64,000 nt of DNA. It comes from Patescibacteria group bacterium (lineage in GTDB: Bacteria; Patescibacteriota; Minisyncoccia; UBA6257; GWB1-50-10). The first letter of the stretch is position 1, and each line of letters opens with the position of its first letter. Position numbers and translations under genes: made by a program. The stretch is from NCBI GenBank assembly GCA_024239035.1, contig JANBVK010000001.1, positions 235,010-299,009 of the forward strand. Reading direction: 5' to 3'. The notes below the pieces were generated by a model. It searched no databases. It saw nothing but the letters and a program-made list of their open reading frames with translations, and was not told the DNA's origin. Of the stretch, positions 1,285-34,440 are shown piece after piece.

Positions 1285-1860
1285 CTATATATTAAGGTCA
1301 CTCCCCACTTCATAGATGTTAGGATCGCTTCCACCATCCGTACCCTCCACATCAGAACCTCCGCCCGCAAACTTCGTGCTCTCCATCGTAGCACCTAACT
1401 CGTAGTTAGTGCCATTACAGGCAAAAGAGTAAAAACACCTCTCATCGGTAGCCCCACAATTAGTGGATCCTTGAGTGGCAATGGGATCAACTGGAAGCCG
1501 GGATAGCGGTGAACCGCTCGAGATGTCAAGGAAATCAACCCCAACCCAGCCGACACCATCAACGGTCGTCGAAGCATTAGTGGTGCAGGTTGCCTCAGCT
1601 CTTCCTGCTGTCCCAAAAGTGCAGCGCTCGGTAGCCGAAGAACAGGCCTGACCATCCGCCCCATCAAGTCCGGGGGTTGCTACATCAGCAAGGTAAAGCG
1701 AGACTGCACTGTTTAACGCCGCCATGTCAGAAATCCTTGTTGAATCCCGCGCCTGCTTAATAAGTTCGGCGGGGTTAATAACTAAAATCACCGCCGTAGC
1801 CAAGACAGCAACAATCGCAATAACAACTAAAAGCTCAATAAGAGTAAATCCTTTCTTCAT
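1285..1860 (-). CDS. Type IV pilin / pseudopilin with class III signal peptide
   Basis: N-terminus MKKGFTLIELLVVIAIVAVLA is the canonical prepilin cleavage and methylation motif (G|FTLIELLVV). The C-terminal half is Cys-containing and Gly/Thr-rich. Confidence 0.85.
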   Translation of the reverse strand: MKKGFTLIELLVVIAIVAVLATAVILVINPAELIKQARDSTRISDMAALNSAVSLYLADVATPGLDGADGQACSSATERCTFGTAGRAEATCTTNASTTVDGVGWVGVDFLDISSGSPLSRLPVDPIATQGSTNCGATDERCFYSFACNGTNYELGATMESTKFAGGGSDVEGTDGGSDPNIYEVGSDLNI

Positions 1861-1931
1861 TGCTATTTTATTTATTGTATCATAATCAGCATCTCCAATG
1901 CCAAGAAGTTATCCACAAGAACCGGCAGACA

Positions 1932-2309
1932 TCAAACAGCAAGAAAACCTTTCACTTTCTTCACCAAATCTTCAATTGACATTTTGGCCTTAACAAAATA
2001 ACCGATTGCTCCCAACACCTGACCTTTCTCAACGTCACTCTCCTGACCTAAGTTGGAGATAATAACTATCGGCGCCTGATTATAGGAAGGATCATCTTTC
2101 AGGATTTCCATCAACTCAAACCCCGATACCTTCGGCAAGATAATATCCAAAAGGACCAAGTCGGGCTTGATACTTTTTAAAACTTTTAATGCCTCCTCGC
2201 CATCTCTGGCTAAGTTAACAATAAACTTCTCCTTTTCCAGCCGTTGCTTAAGGAGATTACCTAAAAGCGGTTCATCTTCAACTAAAAGGATGGTTTTTTG
2301 ATCTGGCAT
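1932..2309 (-). CDS. Single-domain response regulator (CheY-like receiver)
   Basis: LLVEDEP...DLVLLDIILP...K motifs with phospho-acceptor Asp context; 125 aa. Confidence 0.8.
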   Translation of the reverse strand: MPDQKTILLVEDEPLLGNLLKQRLEKEKFIVNLARDGEEALKVLKSIKPDLVLLDIILPKVSGFELMEILKDDPSYNQAPIVIISNLGQESDVEKGQVLGAIGYFVKAKMSIEDLVKKVKGFLAV

Positions 2310-2574
2310 TGACCTGATTATAACATTTACCCCGTTAGAAATCCCCCTATCTATAGCAATAGTAGGGGGGGCAGCCTCGACATAATATCGGGGCTTGTTT
2401 CTGATTGGGGTAAGTTGAAAACTTTTTTAGTTGTCCCATACCCGCCATAGCTTTAGAGCGACGGCGGGGGCCACCTACTTAAAGGCTGAGTGGCCAACAC
2501 CTTCCGCCTTATCAGCGGAATCGACTCAAACTAACAAGAGGTTTTATAACGGCTGTTATAAACTTTATTAGTTT

Positions 2575-4100
<1,526 letters not shown>

Positions 4101-4461
4101 AAAAAATTGGGACAACTAAAAAAGTTTTCAATTCTGGTTCTCCGATTTCACAATATCGGAGGTATATTCATATTTTCAAGTAACATTCGGCTCAATCATA
4201 GTCAAAATAATACACCCACCTCACTCGACATGATCGACGTCTCAAGTGGGGTGGATGTACTAAACTCCAAAGTTCTCTCCAAATTTTACTATCTATGTAC
4301 TATCCATTGTTAGTTTCAGTATAGTGAGTCACCCGTGCTTGTCAATCCCCCACATAAGTACTTATTTTGTGGGGGGTCAACTCCCTAAAACCAAGGGTTT
4401 AGTTGAAAAATTCAGTCTCAGGTGCTAATATTCTTGCAATCTAAACTATGAAACCTAAACC

Positions 4462-4737
4462 ATGAAAAGTGATATTCACCCACAATATTACCCGAAGGCT
4501 AAAGTAAGCTGCGCCTGCGGAAACAAATTTACGGTTGGAGCCACCAAGTCGGAGATCAAAGTTGAGATCTGCAGCAAGTGCCACCCTTTCTATACCGGCT
4601 CACAAAAGCTTATTGACACTACTGGAAGAGTAGAACGGTTTAAAGCAAGGAAGGCGAAGGCTGCCACCAAGAACGAAAAGGCGCGAAAGAAGAGTACGCA
4701 AAAAAGTGCTAAAAAAAATCCGCGTAAATCCGCGTAG
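4462..4737 (+). CDS. rpmE: Ribosomal protein L31 with Lys-rich C-terminal extension
   Basis: [10 protein letters not shown]...CACGN...[10 protein letters not shown] matches the L31 zinc-ribbon signature (CxxC...CxxCHPF). Confidence 0.9.
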
Positions 4738-4767
4738 CTATCCGCGTTTATCCGCTTCTATAAATTT

Positions 4768-5448
4768 ATGGAACTTAAAGTTAAAAACCGCATAATTCTT
4801 GGCAAAAAAGTAAAACACCTTCGCGACAAAGGTTTAATCCCTGCTGAACTCTTTGGTCACGGCGTAACGAACAAACACCTGGAGATTCCGGAGAAAGATC
4901 TTATAGATATTTATAAAAAAGCTGGCAGTCACACCATTATCCAGGTGATAACAGAGGAAGGAGAAAAAATACCAGCCCTGATTTCAGAGGTGCAACACCA
5001 TCCCTTATCAAGAAAGCCTCTTAATGTTGATCTCCACCAGATACGAATGGATGAAATTATTGAAACCGGAGTTCCAATTAAATTTAAAGGTGAAGCCCCT
5101 GTCGAGAAAAGTGGATTTTTTGTGATGAGGGTCTTAGATGAAATTGAAATTAAGGCACTGCCGGACAAGATTCCTCACTCTTTTGAAGTAGATCTGTCTA
5201 CTCTTAAAGAAGTTGGCCAGAGCATTAACGTAAACGACATTACTGTTCCTAAAGAAGTTAAAATATTAACTCCTGGAGAAACAGTTATCGCAACCGTAAC
5301 CGAACGCGAAAAAGAAGAAGAGGAAACTTCTTCCCCGGCCGCCGAGGCTACCGAGGTTACTGCTAAGACTACGCCCGAAACCACTGAAACGCCAAGTAAG
5401 CCTACTGAAGCGGAAAAGAAAAAAGAACCGGAGAAATCTAAAAAATAG
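4768..5448 (+). CDS. rplY: Ribosomal protein L25 / general stress protein Ctc, with acidic and Thr/Lys-rich C-terminal tail
   Basis: N-terminal region (LIPAELFGHG...HLEIPEKDL...) and central beta-barrel region are L25/Ctc-like; 226 aa. Confidence 0.75.
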   Translation: MELKVKNRIILGKKVKHLRDKGLIPAELFGHGVTNKHLEIPEKDLIDIYKKAGSHTIIQVITEEGEKIPALISEVQHHPLSRKPLNVDLHQIRMDEIIETGVPIKFKGEAPVEKSGFFVMRVLDEIEIKALPDKIPHSFEVDLSTLKEVGQSINVNDITVPKEVKILTPGETVIATVTEREKEEEETSSPAAEATEVTAKTTPETTETPSKPTEAEKKKEPEKSKK

Positions 5449-5490
5449 TTATTTCTGAAACGTTATCCGCCCCTGTGCTATTATATAAAT

Positions 5491-6948
5491 ATGAGAAGGA
5501 TGTTCGATATAGTTCCCAAACGCCCTAACCGCTTAAACTTCTCTTACTCCAAGCGGTTCTTTTTCCCCTTAAACGCTTTTATGAAAATCACGGTAGCCGT
5601 GCTGGTTCTTCTGCTTTTTACGGGTTCTGTGCAGGCACCGCAAGTAGCCTATTACACCCGCGCGGCCGAAAACGAGGATGGAGAAAACAATAAAACTACC
5701 CAAGAAGAACGGCTGGAACTGGAAAACAAACTCACTGAATTAGAACAGCAAATTGTTGAACACCAAAACACTATTGATGAATATAAGAGACAGGGTAAAA
5801 CTCTAAATAATGAAATCTACGCCCTGAATGCACAAATCGGTCAAATTAATCTCAAGATTAAAGCTATTGGCCTGAATCTTGAGAAACTTAACGTTGATAT
5901 AACCGACACGCAGGCGCAAATCAACCGAAGCGAAAACAAAATTGACAGCCACAAAGTCGCTCTTGGAAAAGGTGTCCGGGATCTCTACGAAGCTGACAAC
6001 GTTGGCCTCATTGAAATTCTCCTGGCTAACAACAGGCTCTCCGATTTCTTCGGCAACATCAATGATATTGCTCTCGTCCAAAATAACCTGCGAATAGACC
6101 TAACAGACATCATAAAACTTCGCCAGGAACTTCTCGAACAAAAACAAGAACTTGCGCTCGAAAAAGAAGATGTCGAAAATCTCAGGACTTACCGAGAATC
6201 CCAAAAACAGACAGTAGCTGTAACAAAGGGAAAGAAAGCAAATCTCCTGGACATAACAAAAGGTAAGGAATCCGAATATCAAAAACTACTCATAGAAACA
6301 AAGAAAACAGCAACTGAGATACGGGGCAGAATTTTTAAATTTCTCGGCGGCGGCGAGCTTACCTTTGAAGAAGCGTATGACTACGCACGCCTCGCAGAAG
6401 GCGCTACCGGCGTACGCGCGGCCTTAGTCCTTGCAATTCTTGACCGCGAATCACTCCTCGGCAAAAATGTAGGCCGCTGCGGTTATAAAACCGCCATGCA
6501 CCCAACGCGCGATATCCCCTATTTCCTCGATATGCTACGACGCTTGAATATTGACCCAGATTCAACCCTGGCAAAGGTATCCTGTCCCAATGCTCACGGT
6601 TCCTATGGTGGTGCTATGGGACCGGCACAATTCATCCCATCAACATGGGAGCTCTATGAAGATAGAGTCGCTAAAGTCACAGGAAACAACCCCGCAAACC
6701 CTTGGAATAATTCAGATGCGTTTGTCGCGACCGCGATCTACATTGAGGATCTTATCGGCTCATCAGGCTGCCAAAGTTACGGAGAAAAAAACAAACACAT
6801 CGTTCCGAAACAAACTCTTATTGAACGGTGCGCTGCTGCTAAGTACTATTCCGGGAAACGGTGGTATACCTACCGTTTCTGGTACGGCGAACCGGTGGTT
6901 ACAAAGGCAAACGAGTTTGAGGAAGATATTAAAATCTTAACTAGCTAG
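5491..6948 (+). CDS. Secreted coiled-coil protein with C-terminal MltB-like lytic transglycosylase domain; probable true start at 5581 (MKITVAVLVLLLF signal peptide)
   Basis: Signal peptide, then a long heptad-rich region (PcsB/EnvC-like coiled coil), then ...GSYGGAMGPAQFIPSTW..., which resembles the AGAMGPMQFMPATW motif of the MltB / Slt35 family. Confidence 0.65.
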   Translation: MRRMFDIVPKRPNRLNFSYSKRFFFPLNAFMKITVAVLVLLLFTGSVQAPQVAYYTRAAENEDGENNKTTQEERLELENKLTELEQQIVEHQNTIDEYKRQGKTLNNEIYALNAQIGQINLKIKAIGLNLEKLNVDITDTQAQINRSENKIDSHKVALGKGVRDLYEADNVGLIEILLANNRLSDFFGNINDIALVQNNLRIDLTDIIKLRQELLEQKQELALEKEDVENLRTYRESQKQTVAVTKGKKANLLDITKGKESEYQKLLIETKKTATEIRGRIFKFLGGGELTFEEAYDYARLAEGATGVRAALVLAILDRESLLGKNVGRCGYKTAMHPTRDIPYFLDMLRRLNIDPDSTLAKVSCPNAHGSYGGAMGPAQFIPSTWELYEDRVAKVTGNNPANPWNNSDAFVATAIYIEDLIGSSGCQSYGEKNKHIVPKQTLIERCAAAKYYSGKRWYTYRFWYGEPVVTKANEFEEDIKILTS

Positions 6949-6951
6949 CAG

Positions 6952-7707
6952 CTACCCGCCGCTTTTCCGAAACGCTTTCACAATCGGCTCCAAGTTACCT
7001 TCCAAAATTTTCTCAATATTTCCCCATTTCTTCTTGATTCGGTGATCGGTGATCCGGTCTTGGGGAAAGTTATAAGTGCGGATCTTTTCCGCTCGTTCCG
7101 CAGAGCCAATCTGTTCTCTTCGAAGTGAACTTATCTCTTCCACTCCCGCAGACTGCTGAGCTTCATAAAGCTTCGCGCGCAAAATATTCATTGCTTGTTC
7201 CCGGTTTGCGCTCTGTGAACGCCCGGCTTGAGAAGAAACAGTTACACCTGTCGGAATGTGGCGAATTCGCACTGCGGTCTCAACTTTGTTTACGTTCTGT
7301 CCGCCCGGACCGGAAGACCGAAAAAAAGAAACTTCCAACTCATCCGGCTTAACTTGCACTTCCTTTGGTTCAACTACGGGTAGTACGGCAACAGAGGCGG
7401 TTGAAGTATGAATCCGTCCCGACTTTTCGGTTTCGGGGATGCGTTGCACCCGATGAACTCCAGATTCATTTTTCAAAATCTCGTAGAGATTTTGTCCTGA
7501 GCCTGTCGAAGGATTACTTATCTCCGCAACAAACGTTTTATATCCCCTGACCGAACTGGCGCTAGAATCCAAAACGGTAAAGCGCCACTCGCGCTTCGCG
7601 GCGTACTTCTGATACATACGCGCCAAATCCCCGGCAAAAAGCGACGCCTCTTCACCTCCGGTTCCGGCACGGATTTCTAGGATTATTCTGTTTATATTCT
7701 GTTCCAT
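6952..7707 (-). CDS. prfA: Class I peptide chain release factor, RF1-like, lacking the N-terminal domain 1
   Basis: GGQ motif (SSGPGGQNVNK), a PxT-type codon-recognition tripeptide in context (RVQRIPETEKSGRIHTS) and a C-terminal RTYNFPQDRITDHR. It aligns to E. coli RF1 from about residue 110 onward. Only 251 aa. Confidence 0.85.
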   Translation of the reverse strand: MEQNINRIILEIRAGTGGEEASLFAGDLARMYQKYAAKREWRFTVLDSSASSVRGYKTFVAEISNPSTGSGQNLYEILKNESGVHRVQRIPETEKSGRIHTSTASVAVLPVVEPKEVQVKPDELEVSFFRSSGPGGQNVNKVETAVRIRHIPTGVTVSSQAGRSQSANREQAMNILRAKLYEAQQSAGVEEISSLRREQIGSAERAEKIRTYNFPQDRITDHRIKKKWGNIEKILEGNLEPIVKAFRKSGG

Positions 7708-7743
7708 AAAAGCAGTTTAAACATAAAGAAATTCTCAATTTAA

Positions 7744-7781
7744 GTTAACGGCTCAACGACACTCATCGTTGAGCCGTTAAC
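7744..7781 (-). terminator. Strong hairpin (15-bp perfect stem) downstream of fba; terminator-like
   Basis: GTTAACGGCTCAACG-acactcat-CGTTGAGCCGTTAAC, followed on the minus strand by an AU-rich stretch. Confidence 0.5.
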
Positions 7782-7795
7782 AAAGATCACGCTCA

Positions 7796-8677
7796 CTAAA
7801 GCTTATTAAACAACCTTAATCTGTTCTCTATCACTTTCTCCATCTTCTCAATAACTTCCGGCGTAAGTTTATAAGACGCTATTTCTTCTGGATTATTCTT
7901 GAGCGCTTCCTCAAAGCTTTTGCGCCAGGCGACACGCAATTCCGTAGAAATATGAATAATAGAAATTCCAGCATTAATTGCCGCGACAAAATCCTCATCA
8001 CTGACCCCCGATCCCCCATGCAAGACAAGCGGCACTTTCGCAGCGTCTTTAATCTCTCTAATGCGTTCTATCTGCAAGTTTGGGTTAGATGCGCCAGAGA
8101 GCATCCCATGAACGTTTCCCACCGCAGGCGCAAGCATGTCCACGCCGGTTTCCCTGACAAACTGCTCGGCCTGCTCGGGTGTAGGAAGATCTTCTAAACG
8201 AATCGCTGCGCCTTCTGGTAATTCTTTTAGGACTTTAGACGACTGACCGATATATCCCAATTCTCCCTCCACAACAATTTCGGGGTTGATTTTTTTCGCA
8301 ATCTGAACCGCCTTTTTCGTCTGTTGAACATTCTCCTCAAACGGTAATTTTCCTCCGTCAAATATAATTGAGTCATATCCAACCTCTGCTGCATCTTTAA
8401 CTTTATCTAATGAGTATGTATGATCTGCATTTAAAAAGAGCGTATACCCACTACCCTTAGCATGCTCTTTGTTATAGCTCGCAATCAAATCAACGCTGTG
8501 ATGAATGCCAAGAAATCCGCGTTCTCCTTCCGAGGTACCGATGATAACTGGTAACTGCAATCTCTCCGCCACGTGAGAGACAGCTTTCAACATCTCAAGA
8601 TTAGCAACATTAAAATGACCAACCGCTACTCTTTTCTTTTCCGCTTCTTTTATTATTTGGATTAAACTTTTTGTCAT
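7796..8677 (-). CDS. fba: Class II fructose/tagatose-bisphosphate aldolase
   Basis: VAVGHFNVANLE...HGGSG...family pattern of class II aldolases; 293 aa. Confidence 0.85.
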   Translation of the reverse strand: MTKSLIQIIKEAEKKRVAVGHFNVANLEMLKAVSHVAERLQLPVIIGTSEGERGFLGIHHSVDLIASYNKEHAKGSGYTLFLNADHTYSLDKVKDAAEVGYDSIIFDGGKLPFEENVQQTKKAVQIAKKINPEIVVEGELGYIGQSSKVLKELPEGAAIRLEDLPTPEQAEQFVRETGVDMLAPAVGNVHGMLSGASNPNLQIERIREIKDAAKVPLVLHGGSGVSDEDFVAAINAGISIIHISTELRVAWRKSFEEALKNNPEEIASYKLTPEVIEKMEKVIENRLRLFNKL

Positions 8678-9913
8678 TTAAAATTTGATAATGCCTTTAT
8701 CAAAATTACACAAAAGAAGTTCTTCTGTTTTATCTTCGCCGCCCACGTAATCCTCAAAAATTCTCGTCCACATTGCTTCTCTTTGATGATAGGTGAAAAA
8801 TTTTTCCTTACCTTCCATAAAAGATACTAGCGACATTGCATTGTCTTCCAAATCAAAACTTACCAATTCTTCCCTCCCTCCGTCATCGAAGAGTCCTCCT
8901 ACCCAATCAAGGTCGTGCCATAACTCCAAATCAAGGTCATTCCGATCAAGGGCGAATTTGGCCAAATCCCGCTCGCCTCTTAACCAGTGCATGGACTCGG
9001 GGTTGACTCTCGGGAGAAACAAACGGGGGTCGGCAGGATTCTCCTTTGCTAAATATCGTTGAACAATGAGCCATTCGCCGACTCCTACTTTATTAGTTTC
9101 CAAAACGTCGCCTCGGAGAAGTTTTTTAAAACGCTCGGCGAAATTTTTTTCTTTGCTGTATCTCCTGAAAAGTTTGGAATAAAAGTCAATTTCATGGAAA
9201 TAATGCAAAAGCAGGGCAAAGTCCCGCAAAAACTTTCCGGGGACATCCTCTTTGATTGGATTTAAAAATATAACTCCAAACTCTTTTAAGTGACTGACGT
9301 TATGATGTTTTTTAGCGACGAATTTCTTACTCACGTCAAGCCATTTCGCTCCCAACATCTTAAGTTCAATTGGCCGTTCTTCGAAGTCGGATGCCTTAAA
9401 ACCGCTGTAAGCCTTTTCAAAAGTTTCGTGCATCCAATCGTTTGACTCAATGAATCTAAGAGCGCTGAATACCTCCAGAACATCCTCGTTCTTTATAAGC
9501 TCGTCAATCCCCTTGTAGCCGAGATAATCCAAAAGTTTTTGGGAAGGTCTCTCTTTCAAAATTTCCTTCAAGTAATCTTTCTTTAAAAAAAATCCGTCTG
9601 TAGCTGTTGATATTTTTTTAGCCAAACTCACGGATTTCTCAAATTCATTTGCGCCTGGAACGCCCGCTAAAAAACCAAAAAACTGCTTCTCGTGATTGAA
9701 AATTGTTTTCCGCAAAGCGCCGCGGACATGATTTGCTTCCATAATCTTTGAATTTATCTTATCGAGTGTTGAAGCAATGGTCCGCTCATTTAAATCGCAA
9801 AGTTTTTCCATAACACCCGAACGACCCGTTTTCTCGGACATCTTTCCGTCAAGTTCTTTTAACATTTGAGGATTGACCTCTAAAACTTTCGCGATTTTCT
9901 CTGCTGCAAACAT
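8678..9913 (-). CDS. Hypothetical protein (411 aa) embedded in the sugar-phosphate metabolism cluster
   Basis: Long ORF immediately adjacent to fba and pfkB, with no intergenic gap. I recognise no motif; no Cys; charged and helical-looking. Confidence 0.6.
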   Translation of the reverse strand: MFAAEKIAKVLEVNPQMLKELDGKMSEKTGRSGVMEKLCDLNERTIASTLDKINSKIMEANHVRGALRKTIFNHEKQFFGFLAGVPGANEFEKSVSLAKKISTATDGFFLKKDYLKEILKERPSQKLLDYLGYKGIDELIKNEDVLEVFSALRFIESNDWMHETFEKAYSGFKASDFEERPIELKMLGAKWLDVSKKFVAKKHHNVSHLKEFGVIFLNPIKEDVPGKFLRDFALLLHYFHEIDFYSKLFRRYSKEKNFAERFKKLLRGDVLETNKVGVGEWLIVQRYLAKENPADPRLFLPRVNPESMHWLRGERDLAKFALDRNDLDLELWHDLDWVGGLFDDGGREELVSFDLEDNAMSLVSFMEGKEKFFTYHQREAMWTRIFEDYVGGEDKTEELLLCNFDKGIIKF

Positions 9914-9915
9914 GT

Positions 9916-10920
9916 TTATACTGGATCAACGTCTAGGTCTAAATACTGCCAACGTTTCTTCTTAAAATCGCTCTTTCGTAAAATGCCCTCCTGCGCCCCA
10001 ATATGCTCAATAACCGAGGTGGCGTTTGCGCTTGCAAGTCGCAGAGCCCAACAAATATCTTTCTTTTGGATTAAACCAGCGACAAATGCTGAACCAAAGG
10101 CATCACCAGCTCCTGTCCGGTCAATAAGTTTTTTCTCTTTGAAAGTGCCGGCACGATAAAAATATTCTCCATCTGAGACAAATGATCCTCTGGCACCGTC
10201 GGTCATAATGGCTGTGCCGCCAACCATATCTTTAAATTTTTTGAAAATTTTCTTATCCCGCTTATAATCCAAACCTGTTAAATAAGATGCTTCCTCCCGG
10301 TTAATAACCACCACATCAAGACTTTTTAAGAGGGGTTTTAATTTTTGAGCACCCATTTTTAAATAATGTTTAGATGGGTTCATTGCAACCATTGTTCCCT
10401 TCTTCTTTAAATGGGAAATAATCGACTGAATTACGGTAATGGCAATGGTACCCGGTGAAATGTAAGCCCAGCGCGCTTTTAAACTTCTAATCGGTACTTC
10501 TTTTTTTTGAAAATCTCCTGAAGCTCCCCGGTAAACCAAAACGGTCCGCTCGCCTCCTGGTGTCAGAAGAATAGTTGAATAAGCCGTACCGGTTTTCTTG
10601 TCTTTCACGGCTATCGGCGTAACTTTTTCGTTTTTTAGTTCCTTAATTATTGTTTCACCAAACTCGTCACTACCCACTCTCACTAAGGCTGCTGTCCTGA
10701 AACCTTGCCGGCTAAAGGTGATAGAGGTATTAGCCGCCCCGCCGCCGAGGGCAAGGACGGGTTCGTCAATGTTAAGCTTCGTGCCCAACGCGAAACATTC
10801 TGCCTCACCGGTTTTAAAACCAATCTTTTTAAGATGTATTGGATCTCGTAAAACCTTAAAGAACGAGCTTTTCAAAAACACGTCTCGCGTCGCTGTACCT
10901 ATGGTTATTATGTCAAACAT
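9916..10920 (-). CDS. PfkB-family carbohydrate kinase (ribokinase / phosphofructokinase-B-like)
   Basis: C-terminal TGAGDAF anion-hole motif, N-terminal GG dipeptide region, 334 aa. Confidence 0.8.
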   Translation of the reverse strand: MFDIITIGTATRDVFLKSSFFKVLRDPIHLKKIGFKTGEAECFALGTKLNIDEPVLALGGGAANTSITFSRQGFRTAALVRVGSDEFGETIIKELKNEKVTPIAVKDKKTGTAYSTILLTPGGERTVLVYRGASGDFQKKEVPIRSLKARWAYISPGTIAITVIQSIISHLKKKGTMVAMNPSKHYLKMGAQKLKPLLKSLDVVVINREEASYLTGLDYKRDKKIFKKFKDMVGGTAIMTDGARGSFVSDGEYFYRAGTFKEKKLIDRTGAGDAFGSAFVAGLIQKKDICWALRLASANATSVIEHIGAQEGILRKSDFKKKRWQYLDLDVDPV

Positions 10921-23186: not shown

Positions 23187-23305
23187 CAGGACTCAAACCG
23201 ATCGGCTCGAAACCTGCTTAAACGAATCAATTATCCATTGTCCTCACTTTGTCCACATATGTGGACAAAGTGAGGACACAGCAGATCTGCTTGAAAATCA
23301 AATCA
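23187..23305. repeat. Composite repeat family R2/R3, copy A: a roughly 50-nt block (CAGGACTCAAACCGATCGGCTCGAAACCTGCTTAAACGAATCAAT), a 38-bp perfect palindrome GTCCTCACTTTGTCCACATATGTGGACAAAGTGAGGAC (23240-23277), and a conserved tail ACAGCAGATCTGCTTGAAAA
   Basis: Seen directly. The palindrome core TTGTCCACA / TGTGGACAA is a 1-mismatch DnaA-box-like 9-mer in inverted orientation. Confidence 0.85.
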
Positions 23306-26872: not shown

Positions 26873-27320
26873 CAGGACTCAAACCGATCGGCCTGAAACC
26901 TACTTAAACAAATCAATCACTGCTGATTCTAACTGTCCTCACTTTGTCCACATACGTGGATAAAGTGAGGACACGGTAGATCTGCCTGAAAACCGAAAAA
27001 TTAATTTAAAACTGTAACCGGGTGGCCGGTAAAGAGCGGAGTATTTACGACGTCGCCCAAATTGCACGGCTCGCCCACGTAGAGAGCAAATTCCACTTCC
27101 CTGCCCAATAAATCACTAGACACTGCAGTGCCGCTCAAAGAAGAAAAGTGCGTTTCGTACTGCCAGCTGCTTATTTTTTCTTAGCGAGGAACAAGCTTAG
27201 AAAAACAAGTATCCCGAGCGAGTCTCAAACGAATGTGAGAGACGACGAGGGACTACCAAATATTGATTCGGAAAGAAACTAACGAAAAATGAGCCAGTCG
27301 ATTGGCTTATTTTTCGGATT
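26873..27320. repeat. Composite repeat family R2/R3, copy B: the 50-nt block, a palindrome at 26935-26972 (GTCCTCACTTTGTCCACATACGTGGATAAAGTGAGGAC), a CCGGTAAAGAGCGGAGTATTTAC block, a roughly 225-nt insert, and a terminator-like block AACGAAAAATGAGCCAGTCGATTGGCTTATTTTTCGGATT (27279-27320)
   Basis: Shares the 50-nt block and tail with copy A, and shares the CCGGTAAA.AGCGGAG block and the terminator block with copy C. Confidence 0.85.
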
Positions 27321-27598: not shown

Positions 27599-29320
27599 AT
27601 GCCTAATGATAAACAAGAAACAACTAGCGAAATTAAACTAATCGGCACGATGCCGACTTATAGGGACTTATTTCCTGAACAAGGAGCTGTTGGAGAAAAA
27701 TTTGTAATAAGGATTTTACAAAACCTCTATCAGAGAGATTGTTTATTGATTTTGTATCAACTTTCTAAACATTATTACAAATATTGCCAGAAAGGTTGCG
27801 GAGGGAAAAATAGTCTAGATATTTACAAACAGAGATGTTTTGAACTGGTAAGTTCAGAAATACAGGAAAAAATAAAAAAGAAAAACCCAATGCCACCTAG
27901 GGACTATATGATCATTTTTCCTGAGCCATCAATAGTCCATTTAGTTAAGCTTTGTTTGCGATATTGCGACAACGCAGACTACACAAAAAATGGCGTAGAG
28001 TTCTCACAAGAAACTCTACACAATATCGGCAAGAGTTTACTTGTAGTTAATTCTATCTTCGCAGATTGGCAGTTAAAAAATACCAGCGAAAAAACTCGAA
28101 TGACCCTTGATTTATTGGCTAATCTTACAAAACAGCAAATTGTAGATAAAAACTTTGAGATGTCTCAGAAGATGTATCAGAACTACTTTATCTTTAAAAA
28201 ACTATTAAATAACTACAATGCCAAGTTTGATCTTCAAAGTCTTTTTCAGGAAAAGTTTGGTGTCGAGGTGCAGGAGTATTTCGCTTTCCTAGCGGTGCTT
28301 CAGGGGCAATACGATATTAAAGATATACTAGATGAAGATTGGGCGTTGCCATTCTTAGACTTCGACATTGCGTTAAAGAATTTAAAATCAAAATATAAAC
28401 ATAAACTTTTAGATAGCCTCCTAATTAATAATATGAACTATAAAAATCTTAGCATGAGCTTTTTTGATGTGACCGATGTCATAAAAAGGCCACTTGTGAA
28501 GTTACCAGATAATAAAATAATACCCCTGAGTTTACGTCGACTTTTTAACCGGCTCTCAACCTCTGTTTATTTTGATTTACTAGACTCTCTAACCAATAAA
28601 AAAGAAAAAGATAAATTTTCTCAGTATTTTGGATATGCTGTGGAAGACTATTTTCGAGATTTAATTCGTTCTATAGATAGTAGCGTCTTGTTTCCGCGCT
28701 ACGGTAAAGCCGATGAACAAGAAGCAAATGATGCAGTTTTGGTTCAAAAGGATGCAGTTATATTTTTTGAATGCAAAAAACGCCCATTTCATAACCTCGA
28801 ATTTCTTCAAAAGGGCAACGGCGACTATTACCTGGATAGACTTAGAGAGTCTTACTTCAAACCACTAGATCAGATTTGTGAAAGAATTAAAGATTTTAGA
28901 GATGGTAAGTTCTCTGTCGAAGGTGTTGGGAACGATGCACTTGTATATCCGGTGGTTGTATCTCCTGCAACTCCACCACTTTTTTCTGGAGCTTGGGACA
29001 AGTTTAATTTGAATCAATATGTTTTGCCTAAATATTACAATGAGGATAAGAGCATAGCCCCACCAGAGTTTATTGATTTTTCAGAGTTAGAACATATAGA
29101 GGAAGTCCTTAAAAGACAGCAAGATATTGATATTGTCGACCTGATAAAAAGGAAACGGGCTGATACAACGTATCACAGCGCTAATTTTTTGGTGTTTCTC
29201 CATAAAAACCATATGGTCTTTCACAATAAGAGATTATTGGAAAAGTATTTGAGCGAAGTTAAAAGCTTCAAAGAACTTCTTTTTAAAGATAGTGAGAAAA
29301 GGTCGATAGGTGGAAAGTGA
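27599..29320 (+). CDS. Orphan hypothetical protein (573 aa), very AT-rich, bracketed by composite repeats; possible defence or abortive-infection-type protein
   Basis: Long ORF with Lys/Asn/Tyr-rich composition, clearly different from its neighbours. A candidate PD-(D/E)xK-like motif (VQKDAVIFFECKK) is a weak indication only. Confidence 0.6.
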   Translation: MPNDKQETTSEIKLIGTMPTYRDLFPEQGAVGEKFVIRILQNLYQRDCLLILYQLSKHYYKYCQKGCGGKNSLDIYKQRCFELVSSEIQEKIKKKNPMPPRDYMIIFPEPSIVHLVKLCLRYCDNADYTKNGVEFSQETLHNIGKSLLVVNSIFADWQLKNTSEKTRMTLDLLANLTKQQIVDKNFEMSQKMYQNYFIFKKLLNNYNAKFDLQSLFQEKFGVEVQEYFAFLAVLQGQYDIKDILDEDWALPFLDFDIALKNLKSKYKHKLLDSLLINNMNYKNLSMSFFDVTDVIKRPLVKLPDNKIIPLSLRRLFNRLSTSVYFDLLDSLTNKKEKDKFSQYFGYAVEDYFRDLIRSIDSSVLFPRYGKADEQEANDAVLVQKDAVIFFECKKRPFHNLEFLQKGNGDYYLDRLRESYFKPLDQICERIKDFRDGKFSVEGVGNDALVYPVVVSPATPPLFSGAWDKFNLNQYVLPKYYNEDKSIAPPEFIDFSELEHIEEVLKRQQDIDIVDLIKRKRADTTYHSANFLVFLHKNHMVFHNKRLLEKYLSEVKSFKELLFKDSEKRSIGGK

Positions 29321-29451
29321 TAAGGGGGTGTGTCTCATTTGTCTCATTTACCATATAACACCCCTGACCCGAGTGGGTTGATTCTCGTGCTATAATAGCT
29401 TCAAAGAACCCCCTAAACACCCCCATTAAAACAAATCACCTTTATTTTCAT

Positions 29452-29628
29452 GTCCTCAATATGTCCACGTATGTGGATAAATTGAGGACAAATGAAATCC
29501 GCTCTGATAATCAATGTCTCCTACTCAACAAATTATCAATTGGAAACGGTAACTGGGTAGCCGGTAAAAAGCGGAGAATTTACTGCAAACGAAAAATGAG
29601 CCAGTCAATTGGCTCATTTTTCGGATTG
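29452..29628. repeat. Composite repeat family R2/R3, copy C: palindrome GTCCTCAATATGTCCACGTATGTGGATAAATTGAGGAC (29452-29489), a CCGGTAAAAAGCGGAGAATTTAC block, and a terminator-like AACGAAAAATGAGCCAGTCAATTGGCTCATTTTTCGGATT (29586-29625)
   Basis: Direct comparison with copy B; the terminator hairpin TGAGCCagtcaattGGCTCA has an A-run and a T-run on either side, so it could terminate in both directions. Confidence 0.85.
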
Positions 29629-29964
29629 TGGTTTTATACGATAAACCACTCCTCTACCAATTTTGCCCACTTGTTCCACGCCACCTTCTTTTTCGAGCTC
29701 CTCCATATAGCGGGCAACAGACCTGCGAGAGATACCTAAAACCTCACGAATATCGGAATTGGTAAGTTCTGGCCGCTCTTTAAGGAGTTCAAGGATTCTC
29801 ACTTTGTTCTTATTCTTCCTAACAGTTCTGTCTAGTGCGATATTACAAATTCCCGCAAACTCTTTCGCGGTGGTTGTGTCATGCTTTTTTGCCTCACTAC
29901 AAGACAACCAGAACAGGATAAACAAAAGGGCAACAAAGAGAAAAAGAAAGATTAATAAATTCAT
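29614..29964 (-). CDS. Membrane-anchored winged-helix (HTH) transcriptional regulator
   Basis: N-terminal TM (LLIFLFLFVALLFILFWL), then a C-terminal HTH (LTNSDIREVLGISRRSVARYMEELEKEG). Confidence 0.6.
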   Translation of the reverse strand: MNLLIFLFLFVALLFILFWLSCSEAKKHDTTTAKEFAGICNIALDRTVRKNKNKVRILELLKERPELTNSDIREVLGISRRSVARYMEELEKEGGVEQVGKIGRGVVYRIKPQSEK

Positions 29965-30014
29965 GCTTTAAATTTATACCTGCTTTAGCTATCGTGTCAG
30001 ATCCTGCCGAGGTT

Positions 30015-30512
30015 TTAAATTTTCTTAAAAAGTTCGGTATCCATTATTCTCCACCACATCATTTCCTCGCTTACTTTGTATCTCTGAGCCAGTGATTTCA
30101 CATCTTTAATTCCTTCTGCAAAATCTCTTTTCAAAAAATCAATTGGCACTAAAAGCTCTGCCGCAAATTTGTTTACGGCTGTTTCTTCGGGATTCTTAGA
30201 ATTGAAATCATCACCATTATTTCGCAAATCGGCATGTCCCAATATCAGATGCCCTAATTCGTGTGCAATTGTAAATCGTTGACGATGTGGGTGATGATCT
30301 CGATTGTATGCAATTACATGTTTTTTGTTTTTGCTAATATGCGCGCCGGAAACCTTATTGATAAAAGAATGCGACACGAGTTCAATTATAATCTTTCGCT
30401 TCCTGCTAATATGTTGAATAACTTCTTTAATACCAATAGGAGGGTTATTTATTTGTAGTTCACTGATAATTCGACGCGCTAATTTTTGTGGGAATTGTAT
30501 TTTACTTTTCAT
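30015..30512 (-). CDS. ImmA/IrrE-family (COG2856, DUF955) zinc metallopeptidase
   Basis: HEXXH motif in context: FTIAHELGHLILGH. 165 aa; the start overlaps the methyltransferase stop by 4 nt. Confidence 0.75.
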   Translation of the reverse strand: MKSKIQFPQKLARRIISELQINNPPIGIKEVIQHISRKRKIIIELVSHSFINKVSGAHISKNKKHVIAYNRDHHPHRQRFTIAHELGHLILGHADLRNNGDDFNSKNPEETAVNKFAAELLVPIDFLKRDFAEGIKDVKSLAQRYKVSEEMMWWRIMDTELFKKI

Positions 30513-31864
30513 AATTTCTTTTTAAGTATATCGATTGAATATTGAAGTTTTCGCTCTTCTTCTACTGTCAACCCCTGTTCAGACCTAAAAGCGACCTTAA
30601 CTACTGGATCATTTCTTTTAACAACGGTTCCTCCGTAACTTAATGGGAACCTTCTATCTATCAATTTTGGCTCAATCGCTTGATTGAGCACTTGTTTTAT
30701 TTCAAAAACATTTGCACGAGAACTTTTCTTTGTCGAATCAATTATAATAACAAACTCCGTATTGTGTCCTCTATCCTCTACGTTGACCCCAGAATATCTT
30801 TGTGAACTTACTCTATATCGTTTATATTTCTTAAGCACTATGTCGAGGTATCCTTTATCAGCAAACATATCTAACAGCGTATTGAAATTTACCAAACCAT
30901 CCGTGGAGTAACTTATTAAAATAAATCTGGCTTTTAATTTACTGATTAATTCTCTAAATGCTTCTGTGGCCGTATCTCGATAGCAATAGAAGCTCTTTCT
31001 CTCGGTTCGCCAATCCAATCTGATAGCCGATTTGTTGACCGTTTTGCCATTGACCAAAATCTCTTTGTTAATTTTTGGTTTATCCCAGAGGTCAATAGTG
31101 CTCAAAAGATGGTAATTTGAACCATATTGATGTTGATTATATGGAGGGTCTATATAAGCAATATCGCACTTAATATTAGAAGCCAACTCATTTGCGTCCT
31201 CTTTATATACGTTATTTTCTTTACCGTTATTGTGAAAAAGTGGCGGCTCAATCGTTAATCGACTTCTGATTCTATAGAGAGCAGTGCTCGTTGATCCACC
31301 CCACCCCCGATGATAGGCCTTGAAAACACCTGAGGTATTACTGCAGTAAGCTCCTTGAAAAATTAGTGGCGCTAACAAAACTCGCATCTCACTTTCATTG
31401 ATAGTTCCATCCTCTCTCCACTCTCGTATCTTTTCTCTGATCGCATCAATTCGTCGACCGTTCTCTTGCGTATAGAACATACGTTCTTTATCAGGGTTAG
31501 GATTTTCATCATTTGCTGGGCAATAGTACGTAGCAATATAGCCTTTGATTGGTTTGAGATTATTCAAAATACCAAACGCCTTCTGCATTCCGCCTAATTT
31601 TCTAAATGTTGGCGGGCGGTTTCGTTTAATATAGGTATGGTTGATCGTATAAGAATACGGCTCCCAATCATTACTAATGACTTGGTAGCCAAAAACTTTG
31701 GCTAATCTTGATATCACACCGCTACCTGCGAATACATCAAAAAACACGCCGGAGTTCACGCCAGTTTTGCGAACCGCTTGTTCAATAAGAGGCACTAACC
31801 GCCTTTTGTTCCCTATATAGGGTATGAGCTGATTATATGTAAAACTATCTTGATTGCGCGGCAT
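30509..31864 (-). CDS. N6-adenine DNA methyltransferase (Dam-like D12 class) of a type II restriction-modification system
   Basis: IPYIGNKRRL (Dam KWAGGK-equivalent region), FAGSGVIS (FxGxG SAM-binding motif) and catalytic DPPY. Confidence 0.8.
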   Translation of the reverse strand: MPRNQDSFTYNQLIPYIGNKRRLVPLIEQAVRKTGVNSGVFFDVFAGSGVISRLAKVFGYQVISNDWEPYSYTINHTYIKRNRPPTFRKLGGMQKAFGILNNLKPIKGYIATYYCPANDENPNPDKERMFYTQENGRRIDAIREKIREWREDGTINESEMRVLLAPLIFQGAYCSNTSGVFKAYHRGWGGSTSTALYRIRSRLTIEPPLFHNNGKENNVYKEDANELASNIKCDIAYIDPPYNQHQYGSNYHLLSTIDLWDKPKINKEILVNGKTVNKSAIRLDWRTERKSFYCYRDTATEAFRELISKLKARFILISYSTDGLVNFNTLLDMFADKGYLDIVLKKYKRYRVSSQRYSGVNVEDRGHNTEFVIIIDSTKKSSRANVFEIKQVLNQAIEPKLIDRRFPLSYGGTVVKRNDPVVKVAFRSEQGLTVEEERKLQYSIDILKKKL

Positions 31865-31865
31865 A

Positions 31866-33383
31866 TTATCTTTGAGTTTGGGTATCCCTTATGAGGTTAT
31901 GCCAAAGTTTCTCTACATTAATGATCGGAATTTTGATCTTTTTCTTAGTAGTATAGATGTCATTCGGATAATTGCTGATCCATGCAGCTACAAATCTTGA
32001 TCGGGTAATATCGTCTTTCGGAGACTCGTGCGCACTAAACTCGAATGCATCATATTCTGCCTCAATTTCAAATAGTCGACCTTTATAACTATCAACATTT
32101 TGAATGATATCATGACGGATCGAAAATAAGTCCATTAAATCCAAAGATTTAAGTGATTTATTAAACCTTTCAGCAGGAACGAGGTCATCTAAATAAATAC
32201 AAAGGAGATCTGGATAGGCCGTATCCACCCGCACCACGAGAATTATCTTTTCTTCTTTGTCTTGTTTAACCTTAAGAGCTTTAGCTAAGCTTAGATTTTC
32301 TATATAGGAAATAACATTTACTTCTTGGTTTGCCTCTTTATACTTTTTAATAAGTTTAATTTTGTCCTCGAACGTACTTGTAATTTGGGCATGTAGCTGT
32401 TCTCTATATTTTTTGAGACGAGCGTTTTGAAATGGCGCGGTGTATGGAGCTTTACTAATGTCCTCAATTTTATTTAACTTGTGATATTCCGCGAGCGGGA
32501 GTATTGGTTGGCCTGTTTTGAAATATAACCATTCCTCACCGTTTTTAGGCTTAATAAAAAAGTAAAAGATATTAGCGGCGTCAGGTTCTAATTTTTTAAA
32601 CACTAAATTATCGAGGACTCGAAACGGGATAGTGTAAAAATCTTTATATTCCAAATCATCTGTTAATATTTTGAAAACAAAATTCGGGCAGTTTTGATGG
32701 TAGATAAAACTTTTTGGTATCGAGTAATAAATCCTCGGATGAGATTTAAGTATCTCCTCATAAGGTATCGTCGGATACGGAATATAAATATGTTCGCGCT
32801 TGTTGGTTTCAAAACAAGCCTTCCGTTGCTCAAAAAAATATTGAGACACTTTCCTGCCGCTGTTTGATATCTCTTGGATCACTGCACGCTTCGGCCACTT
32901 TTTATCATAATCTCGCAATTTAAATTCTTGAGTTTTGCGATCCAAGAAAACCTGTAACGCTTTCTCTACTTCTTGTTTGAATGCTTCAAACTTTTTATTG
33001 CTGACTTTCGTGATGTTTGTAAATTGAGGTTCAACATCACCGTCCGATCGAACCCTAAAAAGCAGGATACCATCTTTTATTGGTCTAAATAAAATCTCAG
33101 GTAACCTGTAGTAGTAATCATCAGAACCTCTAACAAGACCTATCGCATTGAGAACCATTGAAATGTTGCCGGGGAGCCCCCGTAAAAATGAGCGAATCTT
33201 TTTTTCTGGTACTGACCTACCAATACCCATCATCATTCCGATATAAGCAGGGTTGTCGCGAAAAAACTTTAGAATGTCATTAGTTGAAAATCGATTTGCT
33301 TTCAGCTTGCCATGTTGGACAAAAATGAGAAACTTTAATGGGACGCGGTCTTTTTTAATAACCATGGTTTGGGGATTATCCAC
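31866..33383 (-). CDS. Putative cognate restriction endonuclease (505 aa hypothetical), 1 nt upstream of the methyltransferase gene
   Basis: Position and tight coupling to the methyltransferase; no conserved motif expected or seen. Confidence 0.45.
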   Translation of the reverse strand: MDNPQTMVIKKDRVPLKFLIFVQHGKLKANRFSTNDILKFFRDNPAYIGMMMGIGRSVPEKKIRSFLRGLPGNISMVLNAIGLVRGSDDYYYRLPEILFRPIKDGILLFRVRSDGDVEPQFTNITKVSNKKFEAFKQEVEKALQVFLDRKTQEFKLRDYDKKWPKRAVIQEISNSGRKVSQYFFEQRKACFETNKREHIYIPYPTIPYEEILKSHPRIYYSIPKSFIYHQNCPNFVFKILTDDLEYKDFYTIPFRVLDNLVFKKLEPDAANIFYFFIKPKNGEEWLYFKTGQPILPLAEYHKLNKIEDISKAPYTAPFQNARLKKYREQLHAQITSTFEDKIKLIKKYKEANQEVNVISYIENLSLAKALKVKQDKEEKIILVVRVDTAYPDLLCIYLDDLVPAERFNKSLKSLDLMDLFSIRHDIIQNVDSYKGRLFEIEAEYDAFEFSAHESPKDDITRSRFVAAWISNYPNDIYTTKKKIKIPIINVEKLWHNLIRDTQTQR

Positions 33384-33444
33384 GCTTTATTCCATTATAT
33401 ACTATCGTTCTGATTTTAAGTAGTTAATAGTATATAAATCAAAA

Positions 33445-33708
33445 TCAGAGATCTGGCCTATCCTGCCAATCGTCATAAAGCGGCACAGCAACATAAATCG
33501 CAATTAAAAAAATAAACGCCAAAAAGGCGATGAAGACAACCCAAAACCATCTCTTTTCTCCCGGAGAGACTTTTTTTTCCGAGTTTTTAGAATTAAAAAA
33601 ATTAGGGCCGGAGGTCCCACGTTGCTCATCCATAGCCGAGTTTTTTGACCCGAATCGGAGGTATTCTTTCTTTAATTTAAGTCTTATAAAGCTTCTACTT
33701 ACTGTCAA
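33445..33708 (-). CDS. Small protein with C-terminal TM anchor
   Basis: 87 aa; C-terminal WFWVVFIAFLAFIFLIAIYVAV helix. Confidence 0.4.
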   Translation of the reverse strand: MTVSRSFIRLKLKKEYLRFGSKNSAMDEQRGTSGPNFFNSKNSEKKVSPGEKRWFWVVFIAFLAFIFLIAIYVAVPLYDDWQDRPDL

Positions 33709-33797: not shown

Positions 33798-33892
33798 GTC
33801 TTCACTTTGTCCACATATGTGGATAAACTGAAGACATGTTCCGTAAATTGAGTTGTCCTCACTTTATCCACATATGTGGGGCTTTTGAAGAC
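33798..33892. repeat. Two tandem palindromes of family R3 (33798-33835 GTCTTCACTTTGTCCACATATGTGGATAAACTGAAGAC; 33855-33892 GTCCTCACTTTATCCACATATGTGGGGCTTTTGAAGAC) in the divergent promoter region of the PaaX-like regulator gene
   Basis: Each contains perfect TTATCCACA / TGTGGATAA DnaA-box 9-mers. Confidence 0.85.
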
Positions 33893-33924
33893 AGATAATA
33901 TTGTTATAATTCGGTAACACAAAA

Positions 33925-34440
33925 ATGGCTAAAACTTCTCGCGACACGTGGAAACATATAAGGGAGTGGAGCGGCTTCTTCAAAGACGAAAAAGCCGTTA
34001 CCGAAGCATCGGTGGACAAATTCCTGACGCATCACAAAAAAAGAAAACACTTGAAACAAAGTTTGGACCGCCTTATCAAACGCGGATTTATAAAAGAGCG
34101 AGGCGGCAAACTCACTCCAACAGATAACGGCATCCGCTTTTTCCGAAAGCATACCGGCGCGCGGCAAAACCCAAAGCGGTGGGACGGCAAATGGCGCTTA
34201 ATATCTTTTGACGTGCCGGGTGGCTACAGCATAAAACGCGACCAGCTGCGAGCGCTCCTTAAAGAGTTTAATTTCTATCCCCTGCAGAAAAGTGTGTGGG
34301 TGTGCCCAAGTTATGTCGCAGATGAGTTTTGGAAACTGGTGACCGGATATGATCTCGATAAATATTGCAAAGTAATGCTCGTAGATATTGTAGAAGGAGA
34401 CAAAGAATTAAAAAATCATTTCAGGCGATTTATTAGTTAA
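33925..34440 (+). CDS. PaaX-family-like transcriptional regulator (winged-helix plus PaaX C-terminal-like domain)
   Basis: WDGKWRLISFDVPGGYSIKRDQLRALLKEFNFYPLQKSVWVCP matches the PaaX_C pattern (W.G.W.L..FD.P......R..LR..L...GF..LQ.SVW). Confidence 0.6.
   Translation: MAKTSRDTWKHIREWSGFFKDEKAVTEASVDKFLTHHKKRKHLKQSLDRLIKRGFIKERGGKLTPTDNGIRFFRKHTGARQNPKRWDGKWRLISFDVPGGYSIKRDQLRALLKEFNFYPLQKSVWVCPSYVADEFWKLVTGYDLDKYCKVMLVDIVEGDKELKNHFRRFIS

Follow-up and report, generated by a model that had tools for sequence, protein, structure and literature searches.

A likely restriction-modification operon with a repressor-like methyltransferase tail and an ImmA-type peptidase in a Patescibacteria group bacterium

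Genes and junctions of the operon

The stretch of DNA analysed here, hereafter the window, comprises 64,000 nucleotides (nt) of contig JANBVK010000001.1 (positions 235,010-299,009 of the forward strand; assembly GCA_024239035.1) from a Patescibacteria group bacterium, and contains four co-directional open reading frames (ORFs) on the minus strand, of 505 (from a GTG), 451, 165 and 116 amino acids (aa), which quite likely constitute a restriction-modification (R-M) operon (Table 1). In order of transcription, they encode a putative restriction endonuclease (R protein), a D12-class N6-adenine DNA methyltransferase with a tail similar to those of XRE repressors, a stand-alone M78 metallopeptidase of the ImmA/IrrE type, and a protein with a transmembrane (TM) segment and a winged helix-turn-helix (wHTH). 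The locus adjoins ftsZ and ftsA (protein records MCP6719960-63, locus tag KJI72_01380), and its guanine-cytosine (GC) content is 0.374, vs 0.449 in the rest of the window.

Table 1. Features of the operon, in window coordinates.
Feature	Position	Strand	Remarks
Putative restriction endonuclease (R) gene	31866-33365	-	499 aa from ATG 33365; GTG 33383 as alternative start gives 505 aa
D12-class (alpha) N6-adenine DNA methyltransferase gene	30509-31864	-	451 aa; PF02086
Repressor-like methyltransferase C-terminal tail, residues 419-451	30512-30610	-	Profile similarity to XRE tails
Stand-alone M78 (ImmA/IrrE, COG2856) zinc metallopeptidase gene	30015-30512	-	165 aa; PF06114
TM and winged-helix protein gene	29614-29964	-	116 aa; HTH_24
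Bidirectional intrinsic-terminator hairpin	29590-29623	.	15-bp stem, A and T runs
Conserved promoter/operator 5' of R gene	33394-33449	-	Inverted repeat and TATAAT; 9-locus alignment

Read directly from the sequence, the TAA stop of the R gene is separated by one T from the ATG of the methyltransferase gene, the methyltransferase stop and the peptidase start share an ATGA, a 4-nt overlap that places the last tail codons inside the peptidase start, and 50 nt lie between the peptidase stop and the wHTH start. A terminator hairpin stands directly 3' of the wHTH stop and, being the single terminator after the fourth gene, allows all four genes to end there. The original prediction for this DNA had described the same gene order, coordinates and junctions (1 nt, a 4-nt overlap and about 50 nt), all of which were confirmed; its Dam-like N6-adenine methyltransferase with DPPY and FxGxG motifs, its COG2856/DUF955 HEXXH peptidase and its TM-anchored winged-helix protein as the last ORF were likewise borne out, as detailed below. 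Its putative 505-aa restriction enzyme stood in part, since the conserved D12 partner makes an R-M system plausible; the true start of that protein probably lies at M7, and it matches no known family.

The methyltransferase (MCP6719963.1) is certainly of the D12 class (PF02086, E=7.6e-33; PADLOC MTase_II, E=1.5e-103), with FAGSG at residues 45-49 and DPPY at residues 239-242, and belongs to a large family with >5,800 matches. All 13 relatives at 72-88% identity measure 448-451 aa because of a C-terminal extension of ~50 residues, and relatives at 55-65% identity are ~400 aa long and lack the tail. The peptidase is assigned to Peptidase_M78 (PF06114, E=6.3e-22, 78 bits vs a cut-off of 22) and has HELGH at residues 84-88 (30249-30263), the HEXXH motif being invariant in its homologues. 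Its best PADLOC match is CapP (E=1.5e-27), confined to profile positions 5-153 of 242, and its sequence matches in the PDB include IrrE (3dte, E=1e-6, the best) and CapP (7t5t, E=2e-4). RmrA profiles, of the RosmerTA type of module, matched only via the peptidase domain, and no helix-turn-helix (HTH) is fused to the peptidase. The R, methyltransferase and peptidase genes are all under purifying selection, judged from the proportions of non-synonymous (pN) and synonymous (pS) differences; for the peptidase, pN was 0.18-0.28 vs pS 0.76-0.97, with synonymous sites saturated.

The methyltransferase tail and the conservation of the triad

The triad of R gene, tailed methyltransferase gene and peptidase gene occurs in the window and, among homologous loci (numbered with L), in L001/L002, L005 and L009/L010, that is, in four lineages checked directly, with the ATGA overlap between methyltransferase and peptidase in most triads. 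Moreover, matches to the three proteins recur on contigs of equal size (4586, 4682, 3709, 6096, 11496 and 305897), so that close homologues of all three genes appear to share those contigs and may represent two or three further triad lineages. In L003, L004 and L006, R homologues pair with another D12 lineage (37% identical, 392 aa, tail-less) and no peptidase is found there; in L014-L017, tail-less methyltransferases of ~60% identity are followed by an unrelated 213-aa ORF, again with no peptidase. The peptidase is present in every checked locus whose methyltransferase has the ~50-residue extension and in no checked locus without it; hence, it tracks the methyltransferase extension, not the R gene. 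As a test set beforehand, absence of the peptidase and HTH genes from homologous R-M loci was to signal coincidental adjacency: the outcome was divided, the peptidase being there in every checked tail-bearing locus and missing from L003, L004 and L006, and the HTH gene is not conserved. In fact, the recurrence of the triad in four independent lineages, with its genes under purifying selection, shows that the peptidase is not a coincidental neighbour, and it is very probably an integral part of the operon. In L003, a co-directional 371-aa ORF without a Pfam match (7007-8122) follows the methyltransferase of the peptidase-less R-M pair by 10 nt and may be another accessory gene in the slot of the peptidase.

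The tail of the window's methyltransferase (residues 419-451) reads DPVVKVAF/RSEQGLTVEEERKLQYSIDILKKKL, where the slash stands between F426 and R427 (codons at 30584-30589). Its consensus is ...VAF/RSExxL[TS]xEE...LKKKL or, in a longer form, V-K-V-A-F-R-S-E-Q-G-L-T-x-E-E-E-x-K-L-Q-x-S-I-D-x-L-K-K-K-L. Among 14 tail-bearing methyltransferases, reaching down to 72% identity, A425, R427 and L432 are invariant and F426 is kept in 13 (Y in L001); pN in the tail is 0.19-0.25, far below pS (0.54-0.79).

The next-closest relatives of the peptidase (38-47% identity; L011-L013 and L018-L021) are all encoded 3' of an overlapping gene for a 113-116-aa XRE protein, whose HTH domain resembles those of R-M controller proteins (C.BclI, C.AhdI) and of ImmR, and whose tail follows the pattern ...D-I-R-F-A-L-R-A-D-K-D-L-S-x-K-x-Q-x-x-I-L-x-F-I-x-F-I-K-K. 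When a 76-residue alignment of the methyltransferase tails was compared by hhalign with the full-length XRE alignment, columns 41-75 matched columns 73-107 (P=2.5e-5, score 31.7); 300 column shuffles gave a mean of 11.3 (sd 2.4, maximum 20.7), with 0 of 300 reaching 31.7, and the reversed alignment scored 10.8. Furthermore, a hidden Markov model (HMM) of the tail, run over 2,796 six-frame ORFs, placed XRE partners at seven of its eight best non-self matches (best E=0.006), and the reciprocal HMM of the XRE tails found the L009 methyltransferase as its best non-self match (E=0.007); neither model matched the wHTH or the R protein among these ORFs. The XRE-tail motif was found nowhere else within the 64-kb window. 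BLASTP of the methyltransferase against the XRE partner found nothing, so the likeness exists only at the profile level, over ~30 residues.

In this context, the position of the pair is also comparable, R427 lying 25 residues from the methyltransferase C-terminus and the A-L/R of the sister XRE proteins ~30 residues from theirs. In CapH, the cut made by CapP falls between F82 and R83, within helix 1 of the C-terminal dimerisation domain; the CapH substitution R83A blocks cleavage, and the last CapH helix has been modelled docking on the hydrophobic face of the peptidase domain (bioRxiv 10.1101/2022.04.27.489752). IrrE cuts DdrO between L106 and R107, freeing a C-terminal stretch of 23 residues that dimerisation requires (PMC6868357). 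Taken together, the similarity between the methyltransferase tail and the repressor tails is credible but not overwhelming, and the profile comparisons make homology of the two likely.

On Patescibacteria contigs, the XRE-peptidase pair recurs as part of a trio, consisting of a divergent ORF of ~90-105 aa without a Pfam match, the 113-116-aa XRE gene and a 166-175-aa M78 peptidase gene (L012, 5151-7501; L013; L018, 2055-5528; L019, 1-5504; L020, 1-5501; L011, 6225-7507). The pair lies beside R-M genes in four of five distinct loci, the neighbours being DpnI (L012, L013), an N6_Mtase/Eco57I enzyme (L018), a RadC-D12 gene with a second D12 methyltransferase and an AlwI-family endonuclease (L019), and an N6_N4 methyltransferase with a serine recombinase (L020). 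The trio may be a protease-gated regulator or a toxin-antitoxin (TA)-like module that moves along with the R-M systems of this phylum.

Possible proteolytic control and its alternatives

The operon may have captured the protease half of an XRE-repressor/ImmA-type protease switch. The simplest history would start from an arrangement like that of L019, with a methyltransferase gene next to an XRE-peptidase pair; an in-frame deletion between the two would have removed the HTH and grafted a cleavage and docking tail (a hydrophobic-Arg pair plus an amphipathic helix of ~25 residues) onto the methyltransferase C-terminus, selection then keeping the tail and its coupling to the peptidase gene. The peptidase would dock on the methyltransferase and cut between F426 and R427, removing the last 25 residues, and the cut would alter the oligomeric state, stability or activity of the enzyme (through loss of dimerisation, destabilisation or relief of auto-inhibition), and hence the balance of restriction to modification. 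By analogy, the trigger could be DNA damage or single-stranded DNA (ssDNA), though the peptidase has no sensor domain.

From the sequence of the tail and the analogy with known pairs, we infer with about an even chance that the methyltransferase itself is the partner and substrate of the peptidase. The best explanation as a whole, with all its steps combined, namely a horizontally acquired type II R-M operon in a low-GC island, whose methyltransferase bears a transplanted repressor tail and which includes an ImmA-type peptidase, falls slightly short of that. Direct action of the peptidase on the methyltransferase, as a post-translational proteolytic switch of the restriction-to-modification balance, is proposed more tentatively still. 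The original prediction had suggested protease-based control of R-M expression, or a fused defence module; the protease proved a real and selected component of an R-M sub-clade, and the HTH partner gave way to the tail, which is implicated instead.

To our knowledge, nearly all of the understood control of type II R-M systems acts on transcription, by C proteins, methyltransferase autoregulation or antisense RNA; if the peptidase does cut the methyltransferase, this would be a new control principle for R-M systems. Such a switch might act in restriction alleviation once the cell has damaged itself, or it might release restriction when an infection occurs. Moreover, a repressor-protease switch would have been rewired by moving only ~30 residues, repressor tails would be portable 'protease handles' that can be grafted onto enzymes, and h-A-[FL]-R-[AS]-[DE]-x-x-L-[ST]... 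at a C-terminus encoded directly upstream of an M78 gene would offer a search handle for further enzymes under the control of such proteases. A limited, non-exhaustive literature search found COG2856/XRE pairs and CapH/CapP-type defence regulators, but no stand-alone peptidase coupled to a repressor-tailed methyltransferase.

Several points weigh against this explanation. The tail match spans ~30-35 columns of a charged helix, with an HHsearch probability of 75%, and the individual tail-HMM E-values are modest (0.006-3). Co-occurrence of tail and peptidase was inspected directly in four lineages and is drawn for the rest from equal-sized contigs in three match lists. The 165-aa peptidase consists of the peptidase domain only, without the sensor domains (HTH and GAF) that CapP and IrrE possess, and a wHTH gene follows it in two of four lineages (the window and L005), which makes a link to a DNA-binding protein possible. 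In addition, the R protein has no sequence match in Pfam, PADLOC, NCBIfam, PHROGs or the PDB, which counts against its assignment as a nuclease, and Foldseek searches with two models of it gave nothing significant against the PDB or BFVD.

Among the alternatives, the one that survives best, unlikely as we consider it, holds that the tail is a fusion scar: a deletion would have joined the methyltransferase to the 3' end of an XRE gene, the tail would be a tolerated remnant, and the peptidase would have another role, whether as a toxin-like effector of abortive infection or by acting on an anti-restriction protein of a phage or on an XRE repressor encoded at another place. With the sister XRE-peptidase pairs adjoining R-M genes, a deletion of this kind is readily envisaged; the similarity confined to ~30 residues fits a remnant, and COG2856 proteins have been proposed as toxins or as third components of TA-like modules (PMC3632139, PMC2701414). 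Nevertheless, a tolerated remnant is hard to reconcile with the retention of the motif across the 14 sequences, at a pN far below pS, with the ATGA coupling of the tail end to the peptidase start retained in L002 and L009, or with the lack of a further XRE-tail motif in the window.

A second alternative questions whether the operon restricts DNA at all, and concerns mainly the R protein. Its start at M7 (MIIKKDRVPLKF), shared by 16 homologues and the NCBI record, is probably the true one and gives 499 aa. The family is small, with 16 close homologues and ~10 distant ones in searches of 5.8 and 1.8 billion proteins; an exhaustive profile search of 1.84 billion representatives (E ≤ 0.001) returned 11 proteins, namely P0003, which represents its own 50%-identity cluster, and ~10 more distant ones. 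Scans of genome contigs turned up no relatives for either the R family or the peptidase, and the metagenome scan contributed just four loci. In every locus inspected, a D12 methyltransferase gene stands 3' of the R gene, overlapping it or a few nt away. In the window, L001-L006, L009 and L022, the two genes are neighbours, overlap or are separated by 1 nt, while R identity to the window falls from 85% (L005) through 77% (L001/L002), ~68% (L003, L004, L006) and 67% (L009/L010) to 20% (P0022 of L022, where the methyltransferase is 37% identical to that of the window and still adjacent).

Across all 23 relatives of the R protein, the invariant residues are E354, P391-D392, E441, E443, F449 and H452 only (505-aa numbering), and PD...ExE is the BamHI-type variant of the PD-(D/E)XK signature. 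The AlphaFold2 model, whose predicted local distance difference test (pLDDT) rose from 60 to 85 once distant relatives were added, has at its N-terminus a helix-helix-helix-strand-strand unit resembling a winged helix, then a beta domain in the centre and, at the C-terminus, an alpha/beta domain in which D392 is followed by a strand and, past a helical insertion, the next core strand carries E441-x-E443; the invariant E...PD...ExE...H set thus sits on a beta-beta-(helices)-beta-alpha-beta segment of the model. A profile search with the C-terminal domain and hhalign of the R family against the AlwI-family enzyme of L019 gave nothing significant, and the weak fold matches of the model, none of them significant, are enriched in small PD-(D/E)XK enzymes (NhoI, PvuII). 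From its gene linkage, its sequence signature and this model, the R protein is probably the endonuclease of this type II system and the first member of a family that awaits characterisation. This candidate endonuclease family has a confident model, for which no structural relatives could be detected.

The opposing reading, in which the 499-aa protein has no nuclease activity and serves as the DNA-binding or specificity partner in an epigenetic or regulatory methyltransferase module with a protease, appears improbable. It could draw on the lack of a nuclease family or fold match at any threshold, on the winged-helix-like N-terminal domain, and on the sole annotated relative found for the methyltransferase, a 43%-identical and apparently orphan A. 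baumannii enzyme encoded between ribD and riboflavin synthase. Yet the R-then-M order with overlapping or 1-nt junctions persists over 20-85% identity and two methyltransferase lineages, the invariant acidic set fits a PD-(D/E)XK enzyme, as do the weak, non-significant fold matches, and the setting is that of low-GC or defence islands: besides the GC difference at the window's operon, the L009 triad (1850-10706) lies between a TrwB/TraG-like coupling-protein gene and a convergent block with a DEAD/Cas3-like helicase and two BrxC/BrxD-family ATPases, a defence island on a probable mobile element.

The A. baumannii relative may be AamA, an enzyme that methylates GAATTC / TTTRAATTYAAA (PMC10483419, PMC10287943), and 43% identity is too distant for its specificity to be transferred. 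Word counts of the operator arms, made with a view to the recognition site, showed no depletion. GATC is the most under-represented 4-mer palindrome in the 64 kb (167 observed per strand vs 235 expected, z=-4.4), to a degree comparable with CTAG and GGCC; this hints at past or present GATC-directed restriction in the lineage, with no evidence tying it to the operon.

A separate control of the operon at the level of transcription is probable, with a conserved inverted repeat 5' of the R gene as its operator. The arms of this repeat are TCTGATTTT (33449-33441) and AAAATCAGA (33417-33409), also written CTGATTTTGA / TCAAAATCAG, and a TATAAT follows at 33399-33394, ~30 nt before the ATG of the R gene. 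The inverted repeat is present in the window, L001, L005 and L006; in the alignment of nine loci, the right arm (AAAATCAGAAA) and the TATAAT occur in all nine and the left arm (CTGATTTTGATTT) in six, although the encoded proteins share just 67-85% identity. The operator is also found in two-gene loci without peptidase or HTH (L003, L006, L008), and therefore an R- or M-encoded factor, or a host factor, presumably binds it; the winged-helix-like N-terminus predicted for the R protein makes it a candidate binder, and the operator is a testable site of autoregulation. No C-protein gene precedes or overlaps the R gene, the upstream 87-aa ORF (33445-33708) being small, membrane-like and devoid of an HTH. 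A second, perfect 11-nt inverted repeat, TTATATACTAT / ATAGTATATAA (33395-33405 / 33427-33437), is interleaved with the operator arms in the window copy only.

The downstream wHTH protein (MCP6719961.1) is hydrophobic at its N-terminus (MNLLIFLFLFVALLFILFWLSC), and a winged helix comes next (HTH_24, E=3.9e-11). Over its full length, hydrophobic segment included, the protein matches the C-terminal half (positions 113-212 of 222) of the PADLOC profile CARF3--CARF_TM (E=4.5e-10), and it also matches Csa3-type wHTH profiles, so that by sequence it resembles a CRISPR-associated CARF regulator that lacks its CARF domain and retains the output half. A weak match to a promoter of its own lies at 30000-29971. 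It forms a singleton cluster among 15 billion proteins; in L005, an unrelated MarR-family gene begins 10 nt after the peptidase gene, and in L001 and L009 no HTH gene stands downstream of the peptidase. The TM-wHTH gene is thus probably a local accessory gene outside the conserved unit, and the pairing of an ImmA-like protease with this HTH partner, as originally predicted, was not upheld. As a substrate of the peptidase, the wHTH protein was rejected for its lack of conservation, for the absence of a C-terminal tail beyond the wing and for the absence of a match to either tail HMM.

For the same reasons, an ImmA/ImmR-like pairing of the peptidase with the TM-anchored wHTH, which would repress the R-M promoter until cleaved on a signal, is quite improbable, even though an adjacent HTH repressor is the normal target of M78 peptidases (PMC2701414, PMC6868357), a same-strand HTH gene follows the peptidase in the window and L005, and a conserved operator overlies the promoter: the two downstream HTH proteins are unrelated (TM and Csa3-like wHTH vs MarR), L001/L002 and L009/L010 have none, the operator persists in loci with neither peptidase nor HTH, which further weakens the idea of the wHTH as regulator, and the known partners of such peptidases are of XRE type and encoded upstream.

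Returning to the proposed cleavage of the methyltransferase, the operon can be set beside several known systems. With ImmR/ImmA of ICEBs1 and the phage XRE/COG2856 pairs, it shares a stand-alone HEXXH M78 enzyme of ~165 aa, the size class to which ImmA also belongs, and a peptidase gene directly after, and coupled to, the tail-bearing gene, its nearest relatives being genuine XRE-peptidase pairs. The hydrophobic-Arg pair ~20-30 residues from the end is also present, carried here by the methyltransferase (AF426/R427 plus 25 residues); unlike those switches, the operon contains no XRE repressor, and the module forms the distal portion of R-M genes, not a mobile-element switch. COG2856 proteins in general are ~160 aa long (PMC2701414). 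CapH/CapP is comparable in that CapP is the best PADLOC match of the peptidase, an AF/R and a terminal helix occur in the methyltransferase, and both are associated with anti-phage functions. It differs in that CapP is ~290 aa long, with HTH and GAF ssDNA-sensing domains, whereas the peptidase here is a lone domain of 165 aa; that capH-capP lies upstream of and divergent from the operon that it regulates, whereas the peptidase here is the third co-directional gene; and that CapP has a transcription factor, CapH, as its partner, whereas here an enzyme is presumed in that place. In Deinococcus, DdrO/IrrE likewise involves an M78 peptidase, and the L/R of DdrO lies 23 residues from the end, vs 25 for R427 of the methyltransferase (PMC6868357). 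IrrE, in contrast, has extra HTH and GAF domains and controls a DNA-repair regulon, not an R-M enzyme.

C-protein type II R-M systems resemble the operon in having a dedicated control layer and an inverted-repeat operator, and the sister XRE partners resemble C.BclI and C.AhdI; the operon differs in having no C gene and, in its place, a protease and a methyltransferase tail, i.e., what by analogy would be a post-translational layer. In other systems, for example with M.SsoII and M.EcoRII, an HTH domain lets the methyltransferase regulate itself. In the restriction alleviation of type I EcoKI, ClpXP degrades HsdR, so that proteolysis tunes restriction vs modification, as is presumed here; in that case a housekeeping protease acts on a type I restriction subunit, whereas here a metallopeptidase encoded by the system itself would target a type II methyltransferase.

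Neighbouring repeats and genes

A 39-nt near-perfect palindrome, GTCCTCACTTTGTCCACATACGTGGATAAAGTGAGGACA, occurs in five copies (23244-23273, 26935-26973, 29452-29490, 33798-33836 and 33855-33893), all within 10.7 kb, vs zero expected by chance, and holds an inverted pair of TTATCCACA, which we take to be the DnaA-box consensus. The copies bracket the R-M operon and a 573-aa gene, and one lies between ABC transporter and ROK kinase genes; as this copy, at 23244, stands between housekeeping genes, the palindromes were ruled out as island or att boundaries. Rfam matches at the palindromes were spurious hairpin matches. The palindrome looks like an intergenic repeat or a regulator site.

Part of the intergenic sequence is duplicated as a module (26916-27320 vs 29451-29627) composed of the palindrome, a 49-nt block (27000-27048 / 29535-29583, 84% identical) and the bidirectional terminator (27281-27320 / 29588-29627, 95% identical), the first copy carrying an extra GC-rich insert of 232 nt (27049-27280). 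The two copies flank, in the manner of a cassette, the 573-aa ORF (27599-29320, plus strand; MCP6719960.1, hypothetical), which is convergent with the operon and belongs to the same low-GC island (GC 0.347). This ORF has no match in Pfam, PADLOC, NCBIfam, PHROGs or the PDB and forms a singleton cluster, and it may be another defence gene.

On the other side of the operon, a gene for a 171-aa protein (33925-34440, plus strand) is divergent from the double palindrome at 33798-33893 and lies directly beside ftsZ. The protein contains a PaaX-type Cas2-like middle domain (PF20803, E=1.6e-18) and gives a weak winged-helix match, and it is a candidate binder of the palindrome.

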